DNA of 64,000 nt. Origin: Pelagomonas calceolata. Taxonomy: Eukaryota. The notes beneath the pieces are model-generated. The model worked only from the letters and a program-made list of their open reading frames with translations. It was not told the DNA's origin and ran no database searches. The stretch is from positions 3,038,001 through 3,102,000 of the forward strand of contig CAKKNE010000006.1 in assembly GCA_918797485.1 (NCBI GenBank), given 5' to 3'. The translations under genes and the position numbers were made by a program. Positions 13,292-38,370 of the stretch are shown here, piece by piece; position 1 is the first letter of the stretch, and every line of letters begins with the position of its first letter.

Positions 13292-13359
13292 GCGCATCGC
13301 ACCTGCGGCGGCTCATATCGCGCTGGATTCGTCCGCATTGATGCTCAAACACGCATAGG

Positions 13360-33651: not shown

Positions 33652-35231
33652 ATGATGTCATATTGCAAATTGCTGCTGCTTTGGGCAGCAGCGGCACGCC
33701 CCGTCGCGGCATGTAGGTTCATCGCCTACTGCGGCAACCGCACGGTCGACGCGCGAAAACTACTCTTGGACGGCGAGAACAATTTACTCGCCCTAGCGAC
33801 GAGCCGACCGCTCCTCCCAGCTCTCTCGCTGTCGAGGCACTACGACGAGGCACAAGTACCACTAAGGAACGTGGAGAAGAACCTGGATGGCTACGGCGTG
33901 TCCTGGTACGAAGAAGGCGAGTCCTTTCCTCGCAGAGTCAGAAGTGCCAATCCGATCATCAAGGATAATGTGTCGGATGCGACCTTCCAGAATTTGTTGG
34001 ATGGGCGGGCCGCTGTGTGGAAATCGACCAGTGAGTTAGGTTATTTGCGGAGACCTTCGTGAACCTCCACGCCATCGAACCGGCGCGGTCGCGTCGACAA
34101 TGTCGCGTCGATGGCTGAAAACCACGCTATCGAGCAGACAGCTACGGAGACAACATCGCGTCGATGGCGTAGGGCGCCCGAAATTTGATTTCCACACAGG
34201 CGCGCCGTGCCCATGCTGTTCCGGGCTTCATTAGATGTTTGTGTGGAAGAGCCGCAGCCACCTTCACAAGTAGCTCTTGAATCTAGAGCCGTCTTCGCGC
34301 ACGTAAGGGCCGCATCCCCCAATTCGACGCAGAAGGAGACCAATTCGCACCCGTTCGCATTTCATACGTTAACATGGCTCCACAATGGTCATGTTTGGGG
34401 TTTTGAAAAGTTTCGGGAGCAGCTCATCGCGAAGCTTCCCAGGAAATTGCTGCCGTTGGTCGCCGGCGACACTGATAGTGAACTGGCCGGTGCTGTGTTT
34501 GCGTCGCATCTCGCGGGGTTTCCTTATCGGAAGACGTATGATTTGGTCGCGTTGCGGGCGGCGATGCTCGCGACGGTGGCGAATCTGCGGGAGCGCTCGT
34601 TGCGGGTCCACGAGAGCGAGGGTTCCGATCTGTGTGGAAATCAACCAGTGCGTCGGGCGCACCGGCATCACCACGTCATCGAGCAGGCGTCGCGTCGATG
34701 GCGTGGAGGTCGACGCGAACGATTCAGCACGAACGATTCCACACAGGTTCCGATGTCTGCCCCGACATGCCGCCCTCATCTCTAAACTTCGCTGTTTCAG
34801 ATGGTACATCCCTGGTCGTTATAAGGTTCCGGTCCTCGATGAGCGAGGACCCGCCCACGCTCTACTACCGGATTGTACCAGAGGGCGTGATCGTCGCCTC
34901 GGAGCCGTCGTCTTCAGACGCCGAAACGCTCAGGGAGTGGACGCTGCTCGGCAAAAATAGGATGCTCTCTTATAGTCCCTCGACGGGCGTCCACGTCGAG
35001 TGCGTCTGCCCGCACAGCTGCGACGACGACGTGTCGGCGGCGGCGCACTTTTCCGGGCGGTCCGAGGCTGACGCCGTTGTTGGCAAGGGCCTGGTTTGGT
35101 ACGCCGCCGCCACGGTCCTGGCGTTCCTGCTGGGCCGGCGGTGGCCTGCTCGGTCTTTATCTGAGGAACTGGCGCTTTCTGTCGTCACCGTGTTGTTAGC
35201 CTGGTGGTGCCTGACCACTCCTCCATGGTGA
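33652..35231 (+). CDS. class II glutamine amidotransferase (EgtC/DUG3-like Ntn hydrolase), 3 exons (33652-34004, 34200-34621, 34747-35231)
   Basis: CRFIAYCG, NLDGYGVSWY, FAHVRAAS, NSHPF, WLHNG, GDTDSE, SLNFAVSDG, VASEP; two introners removed in frame. Confidence 0.88.
34013..34199 (+). mobile_element. introner (intron 34005-34199, GC-AG)
   Basis: TIR ctgtgtggaaatcga/ttgatttccacacag; TSD gcgggccg/gcgcgccg. Confidence 0.9.
34630..34746 (+). mobile_element. introner (intron 34622-34746, GT-AG)
   Basis: ctgtgtggaaatcaa...gattccacacag; perfect TSD gttccgat. Confidence 0.9.
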
Positions 35232-35322: not shown

Positions 35323-35632
35323 CAAGTACCTCAGGCCACGCTGGCGGCCTTGTAGCGGTGCGTAGAGTCCACCAGAGTTGGCTCCAGTGCGCAAGGATCG
35401 TCTACGTGTGGCTGGTCGACGGGTAGGCTAACCTCCGTAGCTCGGGAGACAGCGTACGTGACACTGCACACTGTATGACCAACGCAGCACTCGTGCCGCT
35501 AGATCTCGAGGACGGAGTCGTAGGCTACGACGCAGTCCTAGCAGAGATCAAGTGATACGCGACGTCTGAAGGCACCTACGCGCTCCCATACGTGTCGGGC
35601 ATCTTTTGTATTTTACCAGCAGCGGCGATACT

Positions 35633-36367
35633 ATGGTGGCGACTCGTATCATCTTAGCGCTGGCGCTGGCGCAAACTTCGGCGCTCGTCCCACCAGCAAG
35701 GCGCGTCGCGACGACGCTCGCCGCCACACAGACTGATTGCGGCTGCGAGGTCATGACCGGGGACGTCCCGACCAAGGCGCAGACGATGCGCCATCGATCG
35801 GTGGTCAGCGACCTGCCCCTCCTCACGACCGACGGCACGCGAACGACGCTCAAGACTTCGATACCGGAGCGCGTCGCCGTCGTCGCGTTCCTGCGGAGTT
35901 TTGGGTGACCCTTCTGCCAGGAGCTCCTCGTCCAGCTGGAGAGGCGGCGCTCGGAGCTCGAGAAGGAGGGCGTGGGCCTCTACGCCGTGGGCATCGGCAC
36001 CTCTGAGAAGGCGCGACTTGTGGCTGACCACGTCGGCTACTCCCCTTCGAAGTTACTGGCGGACCCGGACAATTTGTTGTACGACGCCCTTTCCTTGAAT
36101 GCGGGTTTGCAAAGAACTTTTTTCAATCCATCCACACCCTACGCCATCTTGGATCGACTCACATCAAATAAAATGGGCGATTTGAATGACGTGCTCGGCA
36201 AGTGGGGAGACGCGTTCATCATTCCGCCCAAGCAGAGCCAAGCGTTGAACCAAGGGGGCTTGTTCGTTTTTGACGGCGAGGACAGCGCGTTCGTCCACTA
36301 CGACGCGTCGACGGGCGCGCACGGCGATCTCGACCAGGCCGTCGCCGTCGCGCTCGCTCGAGCCTGA
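35633..36367 (+). CDS. AhpC/TSA-like (PRXL2/SelU-type) selenoprotein; TGA 35906-35908 read as Sec
   Basis: VVAFLRSFG-TGA-PFCQE (UxxC) continues in frame into GLYAVGIG...LLADPDN...QGGLFVFDG. Confidence 0.88.
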
Positions 36368-36377
36368 ATACTCGGTT

Positions 36378-36441
36378 GCGCGTGTTCGTGACGCGCCAAG
36401 TTCCCTCGTACTGCGGGGCTTGGCGCCGACTTCATACGCGC
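36378..36441 (+). other. SECIS element candidate
   Basis: helix I gcgcgtgt/atacgcgc, core GUGAC(36388-92)/CGAC(36427-30), helix II gcgccaag/cttggcgc; starts 11 nt after the stop codon. Confidence 0.72.
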
Positions 36442-36887
36442 GCCGGGGGCGTTTGTTAAATGTTTATCCTCCTACTGCCTGCGCGGCGCGCTCGCGCGAA
36501 ACTGCAGCCAAGCACAGTACCCCTGCTCGACGAAGTCTGGACCAGTAGCCTCGGGCGACGACTGCGACCAGGAATATTTGATGTCTCTTGATCGTCACGA
36601 CACCCGCGCACGCTTACTTTCATTTGAGGGGCGACAGGCAAAAACTGCTCCTGCCGCATTTCCTCAGCCTATACATTGATATAGCTCGGAAAAGCAGACG
36701 CCACCGGAACTCCGTTTCGCTGCGCTCCTCGTCGTGCAAAAAAATCGCTGGTCGCAGCTCCTCCGCAGCTGTAAACACAGCAAGTTTCTGCAGCAGCTAC
36801 AGCAAAGCTGCAGCGTTCCTAGGCTCCGGACACGAGTTCCGCAGCGCCGCCACTACGTCGCAGACAGCCCGGCGAAGCTAAGCCACG

Positions 36888-38370
36888 ATGATGCGCGCCG
36901 CCCGCCGCACCTTCAGCGAGATGAAGCCGCGCACGCGATTCGCAGCGCATAAATCAAATGTCGCATCCGCACGCCATCGCCGCGGCGCCTGCACGACGGC
37001 GTGGCGGCGCAGCGCCCTGACCTCATAGCGACTCACACAGGCGCTTCGTCATCAAGACCTTCAACAAGATCAGCCCGCAGGGCTTGGAGCGCTTTAGACC
37101 GGAAATGTACCGCATTAAACCGGGCGAGGACCAGCCTCCGGTAGCACATGCCATCATGCTCCGCTCCCACAAGATCCAAGATAGCGACGTCCCGTTGACG
37201 TGCCGAGCCATCGTGCGGTGCGGCGCGGGCACGAACAATTGCAACGTGCCGCGGATGACGGAGCTCGGGATTCCCGTCTTTAATACTCCTGGGGCCAATG
37301 CCAACGCGGTGAAAGAGTTGGTGCTTTGTGGGTTGCTCATGGCTTCTAGAGGTATTTATGAGGGTGCCAGTCACATGACGAAGTTACATGCCGAAGGCAC
37401 GGCCCACGAGCGCATCGAGAAGGACAAGGCCATGTTCGGGGGGCGCGAGTTGACGGGCAAGACGCTCGGGGTCGTCGGTCTCGGCGCCATCGGTGCGGCC
37501 GTGGCGCATTCCGCCATCGCCCTCGGCATGAATGTCGTAGGGTACGACCCCGGGTTGTCCGTCGAAGCGGCTCTCAGACTACCTTCCGGCGACATGGAGA
37601 TGGCGTCTTTGGAAGACCTCGTCGAGCAGAGCGACTACGTGACGCTACACGCTCCTTACATCAAAGATGTCACTCATCATTTGATCAACGCCGAGTTGTT
37701 GGCGAAGATGAAGCCCGATGCTAGTCTCTTAAACTTCGCGCGAGGCGAGTTAGTAGATGAAGCGGCTCTCAACGAGCGCTACGAGGATGGTGGCGGTGGT
37801 AGGTACATCACGGACTTCGCCGTTTCGGACGAGTTGTACCCGAGACCGAACGTCATCTCCATCCCGCACTTGGGAGCGTCCACGGAGGAGGCCGAGGCGA
37901 ACGCGGCCGCGATGGCCGCCGACACGGTCCAGCTCTACCTCGAGACGGGCACGATCAAGGACAGCGTCAACTTCCCGGCCTGCTCCTTACCGGCGCGCGA
38001 CGAGGAACATGTCCACCGCTGCACCGTGATCACGGAGAATCGGCCGGGCATGCTCGGTGACTTGATGAGCGTCTTCGGCGACGCTAATCTCAATGTGGTG
38101 CAACAAATAAACACCTCCAAAGGAGAACTCGCGTACAACGTGATTGATCTGGAACTTCCTAGAACGGCAGATGGGAAGGTCGACGTCGGTGAATTCGGCA
38201 CCGGCGACTTTGATAAGTTGCAGGCCAAGATCATGGAGGTGTCCGGGGTGAAGTCGACGCGGTTCATTTCGGACTGGTGCCCGGGGACGGGCTACGCCGT
38301 CAAGGTCGATGATCAGATCATCGGCATTGGCGTGGATTCGCCCGAGCAGGCGTCGTACGCGGAGCTCTGA
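36888..38370 (+). CDS. PGDH: D-3-phosphoglycerate dehydrogenase with ACT domain, 2 exons (36888-36934, 37041-38370)
   Basis: RCGAGTNN, FNTPGANANAVKELV, GVVGLGAIG, NFARGELVD, PHLGASTEEA, NRPGMLG. Confidence 0.93.
36943..37040 (+). mobile_element. degenerate introner (intron 36935-37040, GC-AG)
   Basis: cagcgcataaatcaaa...actcacacag; TSD gcgattcg/gcgcttcg; splicing gives KPRT|RFVIKTFNKIS. Confidence 0.75.

Follow-up and report, generated by a model that had tools for sequence, protein, structure and literature searches.

A single polyadenylated transcript in the window analyzed here (the whole 64,000-nucleotide stretch of DNA) carries two conserved reading frames. Each has a UGA within it, in frame, and both of these codons are probably decoded as selenocysteine (Sec) with the help of one SECIS element in the 3′ untranslated region (UTR). 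The main frame would yield a predicted plastid-imported oxidoreductase of the SelU/PRXL2 type, and the upstream open reading frame (uORF) would likely yield a 60-residue membrane peptide of an unnamed family. A sequence-only reading of this DNA had described the main gene; the SECIS element and the conserved uORF with its second in-frame TGA, which that reading left out, were both found here.

The main gene, its transcript and its SECIS element

The main coding sequence (35633–36367, + strand) extends for 91 amino acids to a TGA at 35906–35908 and then for 152 amino acids up to a terminal TGA at 36365–36367, giving a read-through protein of 244 residues with Sec at position 92. The sequence-only reading had taken the first TGA to split a frame that continues for about 150 residues, and this picture holds: 14 metagenome loci were fetched (L numbers below), several of them near-duplicates, and all 13 that cover the codon have TGA, with purifying selection on both sides of it in the haplotype comparison (omega 0.23 and 0.12, or more exactly 0.123 after the Sec codon). 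By parsimony, the first codons after the Sec codon carry 11 amino-acid changes among 39 codon changes. The context, FLRSFG-TGA-PFCQE, gives the motif FGUPFC and thus a UxxC site, and alignments bear out the earlier suggestion that the TGA stands at the first Cys of a CxxC motif: its counterpart is that Cys in a mango homologue (XP_044470429.1; E 3e-31) and, by a weak alignment (E 0.023), in the human prostamide/PGF synthase (PDB 9us9). Two findings would have told against that reading, orthologues lacking both Cys and Sec here and an intron across the TGA; homologues have TGA or Cys at the position, and the raw polyA reads contain no joints.

Profile matches agree with the earlier assignment to AhpC/TSA proteins of the PRXL2/SelU-like kind. 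The read-through protein scores 52.6 bits against AhpC-TSA_2 (PF13911; Pfam cut-off 27), and the Pfam cut-offs for AhpC-TSA and Redoxin are passed only when the two halves of the frame are joined. Among named homologues, those of Aureococcus anophagefferens come closest (69% over 53% of the length); a protein from Monoraphidium that NCBI names 'seleno protein U' is 45% identical over 71% of the length. Judged by these relatives, the host is probably a pelagophyte alga. Against the model for SelL-related redox proteins (NF040769), the protein reaches 61 bits, below the curated cut-off of 120, and the TGGUT motif given for algal AhpC_a selenoproteins in excerpts of PMC7539508 is absent from it, FGUPFC being present instead. 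That the main frame encodes a Sec-containing protein is, in our judgment, virtually certain; the protein is predicted to be a thioredoxin-fold thiol oxidoreductase with a UxxC site, likely of the plastid. Taken alone, the main gene enlarges the known algal SelU/PRXL2 family by one member, and the addition of one mis-annotated plastid-type SelU is of modest value.

The plastid assignment comes from the N-terminus, which the sequence-only reading had likened to a signal plus transit peptide and whose anatomy is as described. The predicted bipartite presequence (35633–35734) comprises a 17-residue signal peptide ending in Ala, a Leu at +1 and then 17 residues that include basic but no acidic ones. 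Judged by hand rules in place of a predictor, 8 haplotypes (L011 and L012 left out) share a hydrophobic segment of 15–17 residues ending in Ala, followed by Leu (Phe in L004) and by a transit part of 15–17 residues with 2–3 basic and 0–1 acidic residues. The +1 residue of such presequences follows an F/W/Y/L rule. By hand reading, the N-terminus also fits the ASAFAP-type motif named in excerpts of PMC5462543, and on these grounds there is a good chance that the protein is plastid-imported. The predicted mature protein opens with a DCGC motif (35735–35746) that none of the 11 loci covering it has lost, L011 and L012 included; the motif may represent a second dithiol or a metal site outside of the thioredoxin domain.

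Continuous stranded read depth defines an unspliced polyA transcript (35349–36472, + strand) that comprises the leader, uORF, main coding sequence and SECIS element, with 5′ ends at 35349–35367 and a 3′ end at 36472. The reads are short polyA reads from four runs of one sample, 6–12% of each run having been used; their depth at the main TGA codon is 46–65, and no variant at or above 3% occurs at the main or the uORF TGA in these runs, i.e. no editing is seen. Their strand orientation agrees with that of reads lying farther 3′, before the next gene on the + strand. Low-depth reads of the opposite strand occupy 36488–36650, between the main gene and the next one, and an insertion of one A at 36737 appears in 3–6 reads in three runs. 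Of the neighbouring genes, a class-II glutamine amidotransferase-like one lies upstream, broken into pieces (33652–35231), and one for a D-2-hydroxyacid (phosphoglycerate-type) dehydrogenase with an ACT domain lies downstream (37105–38370); both are syntenic in L007/L008, and the dehydrogenase is also found in L012. Elsewhere in the window, a TGA at 13339 (+) joins frames of 85 and 302 amino acids, with a Cys adjoining and no SECIS-pattern match nearby; it is probably an intron boundary or a chance occurrence.

The SECIS element (36378–36441, + strand) was recognized by pattern, folding and covariation, and consists of an 8-bp helix I, a GUGAC/CGAC core (36388–36392 and 36427–36430), a helix II of 10–12 bp and an apical CC. 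The search pattern, which is of our own design rather than that of SECISearch3, has one match in the 64 kb on both strands, directly after the main frame, and none in 20 shuffles. The core is kept in all 12 loci that reach both of its sides (L009 and L013 end too early). An alignment of 10 sequences shows helix II 100% paired and both sides changed at 4 of its 10 pairs, which exceeds every slid control; the structure was derived from the window sequence, a procedure that favours that structure. The element, which lies within the transcript's 3′ UTR, has the UGAN/NGAN core, the helix II and, of the AA or CC expected 10–13 nt past the quartet, the CC; the NTGA_CC_GA pattern in excerpts of PMC2375036 is fitted by the window and 10 of 12 loci, the exceptions being L011 and L012. 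The SECIS-like hairpins of those two loci (L011:2585–2622 and L012:1207–1250) have an AUGAC core and neither AA nor CC 10–13 nt after the quartet. An Rfam scan of 35400–37200 returned no SECIS model match and three chance-level matches, and no tRNA is present in the 64-kb window. Excerpts of PMC3753652 put the minimum working distance between UGA and SECIS at 51–111 nt; the main Sec codon, retained in the mRNA, lies 479 nt from the SECIS core and is above this minimum, whereas the terminal TGA is only 20 nt from the core and is therefore predicted to act as a stop.

The upstream open reading frame

The uORF (35475–35657, + strand) begins at the sole ATG of the leader, meets its own TGA at codon 27 (35553–35555, 832 nt ahead of the SECIS core) after 26 amino acids, and, if read through, ends as a 60-residue peptide at a TAG (35655–35657) that lies 25 nt inside the main coding sequence and out of frame with it. 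Upstream DNA is available for 12 loci, and 10 of them have the uORF; the other two, L012 and the Aureococcus-like L011, have the main gene and a SECIS that lacks AA or CC at the standard place, and no uORF. In all 10 uORF-bearing loci the offset between the two frames is the same and the overlap is 19–25 nt, despite indels. Between the two starts, no further ATG occurs in 1216 nt, as compared with 1.5 per 150 nt window-wide, and the context of the uORF AUG is weak, with T at −3 in all seven haplotypes that include it. Identity to the window is 44–72% for the leader DNA upstream of this ATG and 67–91% for the uORF itself.

What marks the codons beyond the upstream TGA as coding? Among 8 distinct haplotypes (L002, L006 and L008 were dropped as duplicates, and the remaining haplotypes are related, so that alignment columns are not independent), the 23 codons after the TGA have 5, 5 and 19 variable columns at the first, second and third codon positions and an omega of 0.118. 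The third-position excess in the uORF frame gives a Fisher p of 1.7e-6 on columns, at a synonymous divergence of about 0.5, and parsimony counts 7 amino-acid changes among 41 codon changes. In the other two sense frames omega exceeds 2; in one antisense frame it is 0.40, and the window sequence breaks that frame with a stop. Constraint is weaker over the first 26 codons (omega 0.48 overall, 0.10 for the last nine of them). Since the TGA is not followed by any in-frame ATG, the codons beyond it can, barring a non-AUG start, be reached only by read-through. Metatranscriptome contigs cover the uORF and have at least five variants at 35534–35588, those listed being at third positions; contigs cannot show a single transcript, and they are not counted as support. 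A frameshift joining the uORF to the main frame was rejected, because the uORF frame itself is the one under selection after its TGA. We also rejected a global TGA=Trp code, since TGA ends 12 of the 21 long open reading frames in the window and Trp is TGG in both frames of this transcript.

The uORF therefore has what one looks for in a selenoprotein frame, i.e. a conserved in-frame UGA flanked on either side by coding-type conservation, with a SECIS farther along the mRNA, as well as what defines a conserved-peptide uORF, i.e. a peptide under purifying selection upstream of the main frame on the same transcript. From these patterns of conservation, we consider it likely that the UGA is read through, with Sec insertion by way of the shared SECIS as the leading candidate. 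Residues 36–54 of the read-through peptide (35580–35636) form a predicted membrane helix: hydropathy is 1.8–2.2 over 19 residues, and an AF2 model of the Leu allele described below places a helix at 35–54 with a mean pLDDT of 65. The peptide matches no Pfam family (best E 0.04–0.2) and, by sequence, nothing in NCBIfam or the PDB; a Foldseek search with the low-confidence model gave no match, and the Atlas gave none, or a best score of 0.82, which is at chance level.

The residue at the upstream UGA and competing explanations

Which residue belongs at the upstream site? Of 10 loci, 8 have TGA and the remaining two, L007 and L008, which are one genotype, have TTA; TTA is derived on the tree, where L007 is sister to L009, which has TGA. 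A window-type protein, P0040, has Gly there, and downstream of the site the peptide is unaltered in the Leu and Gly sense alleles. Of the related protein calls, nineteen have their end precisely there (the stop codon is not shown in them), as does one L007-type call whose cluster-mates read Leu. A full HMMER search, which returned 11 representatives, showed that the family reaches distant unnamed proteins, which share with the uORF peptide a core of about 35 residues with variable ends (profile match 97%). Among 16 distant proteins examined, 14 have W at the site, P0114 starts just after it and P0120 ends before it. P0120 reproduces the beginning of P0116 exactly and breaks off right before the residue that its cluster-mates read as 'W', such that the cluster of P0116, P0120 and P0121 contains calls reading W and a call stopping at the same codon. 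Gene calling under translation table 4 reads TGA as Trp, and we infer that such callers were used for these proteins. The simplest reading would then be that the distant 'W' is a TGA on which gene callers differ, one taking it for a stop and another for Trp, and Sec codons may lie concealed behind 'W' in unnamed metagenome proteins. Searches of viral and prokaryote collections did not find the DNA of these distant homologues, and the homologue searches yielded no Cys form of the peptide, the site being W, L, G or the end of a call. Leu and Gly replacements are unusual for a catalytic Sec; that such alleles are tolerated and that a Cys form is missing is easier to square with a role for the codon than with one for Sec chemistry.

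The explanation that competes best with Sec insertion, and which we nonetheless regard as unlikely, is that the upstream site was ancestrally Trp (TGG), has mutated to TGA in this lineage, and is now read by a near-cognate Trp-tRNA or only opportunistically as Sec, the main gene still being a selenoprotein. The 14 W calls among the 16 distant proteins speak for it, as do the single transition that leads from TGG to TGA and the Leu and Gly alleles, which show Sec chemistry to be dispensable; moreover, basal read-through of UGA often inserts Trp. Yet TGG is found in none of the 10 loci, although reversion would be easy, and the 19 calls that end exactly at the site also argue against a Trp ancestor. 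P0120 stopping at its cluster-mates' W and P0114 beginning just after the site are as expected for a TGA read by a table-4 caller, with the reservation that P0120 could be a truncated call. A weak further count against Trp is the W:C ratio in the flanks of the distant proteins, 28:23, with 17:23 in the control.

Less probable still is that the uORF stands apart from the main gene, either as a small selenoprotein gene with an overlapping transcript to itself or as a bicistronic passenger that has no regulatory link. The read depth has a step near 35516, being higher at 35408–35515 than at 35516–35620, the orthologous loci L011 and L012 lack the uORF, and bicistronic mRNAs are, according to excerpts of PMC7896298, common in green algae. 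Against this idea, none of the four runs shows a peak of read ends between the two frames, and the out-of-frame overlap is kept in all 10 loci; in addition, the window has a single SECIS-pattern match, and therefore the uORF has no SECIS of its own.

We see very little room for a uORF that truly ends at its TGA as a 26-residue peptide, with the conservation beyond as a relic or an RNA-level constraint. TGA is indeed the commonest stop of the window's long open reading frames (those 12 of 21), and the +4 base is U at the uORF TGA and C at the main Sec codon. Opposed to a true end are the concentration of changes at third positions of the uORF frame, the omega values of the alternative frames, the existence of sense alleles, and single-sequence folds, in which no shared fold or conserved hairpin is evident after the TGA.

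Finally, that the main TGA truly ends the frame of a pseudogene, or is removed by splicing in the manner of the NCBI Aureococcus models P0020, P0025, P0098 and P0100, which lack the FLRSFG-x-PFC segment, is scarcely credible given the joint-free raw reads, the TGA in 13 of 13 covering loci, the purifying selection on both sides and the SECIS covariation. These four models are named 'prostaglandin-F synthase', and the active-site segment around the Sec codon is missing from them, apparently modelled as an intron; in the Aureococcus-like locus L011, the TGA-bearing segment is in frame.

A candidate selenium sensor and its known relatives

With Sec insertion at both UGA codons as the preferred reading, what might the arrangement accomplish? 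Ribosomes may divide between the weak-context uORF AUG and the main AUG by leaky scanning. Those that stop at the uORF UGA would do so 74–83 nt before the main AUG (77 nt in the window), from where re-initiation is possible, whereas those that insert Sec would run 19–25 nt past the main AUG, and re-initiation there would not be possible. Sec-tRNA supply would then set both the output of uORF peptide and initiation on the main frame, in a selenium-dependent feedback that is the least certain step of the scheme. In other words, the uORF, as part of what may be an old, unnamed peptide family, might act as a selenium sensor in which SECIS-dependent read-through turns a short, re-initiation-permissive uORF into an overlapping one encoding a membrane peptide, and thereby sets the amount of the plastid selenoprotein. 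We offer this proposal tentatively, as a possibility drawn from the layout of the sequence, and the absence of the uORF in L011 and L012 counts against it.

If true, a eukaryotic mRNA would have one SECIS serving two open reading frames, together with a new selenopeptide family without a Cys form. Since the programs that search for selenoproteins depend on Cys homologues or presume one open reading frame per SECIS, they would miss a 60-residue, Cys-less peptide that shares a SECIS. If the read-through is Sec-dependent, there would be a testable model of how selenoprotein output is tuned at translation initiation in selenium-dependent marine algae, and a new selenopeptide family to seek in other algae. 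Literature listings contained no case of a UGA-containing uORF or a bicistronic selenoprotein mRNA; the uORF peptide could be among the 'hypothetical' selenoproteins of the two Aureococcus selenoproteome papers. The uORF motifs were found neither by a full-text search nor in supplements of PMC3753652, PMC2375036 and PMC6627142, some of whose alignments may be images.

Several known systems invite comparison. Conserved-peptide uORFs and overlapping-uORF switches are known kinds of control. The uORF described here resembles them in its short conserved core with variable ends, its low omega, its leader position and its out-of-frame overlap, and differs from them in having an in-frame UGA under a SECIS and in a link to the same main frame that is seen only within one clade. 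The Sec form of SELENOU occurs in more than half of 36 algal genomes, according to excerpts of PMC7539508. The main protein is like these SELENOU/PRXL2 algal selenoproteins in scoring above the PF13911 cut-off and in its UxxC at the CxxC position, and unlike them in its predicted stramenopile plastid presequence and N-terminal DCGC; its gene, moreover, has a CC-type SECIS and is located behind a UGA-containing uORF. With the Cys-form PRXL2 proteins (9us9 and XP_044470429.1), it shares the R-x-F-G-C-x-x-C motif region and a C-terminal QGG-x-FVF; the residue is Sec here and Cys there, and the likeness is one of sequence and carries no implication of prostaglandin substrates. Lastly, the transcript is like the green-algal bicistronic mRNAs described in excerpts of PMC7896298 in that it carries two open reading frames and has an upstream start context predicted to set their ratio, and unlike them in that the host is a stramenopile, the frames overlap and both would depend on UGA recoding.
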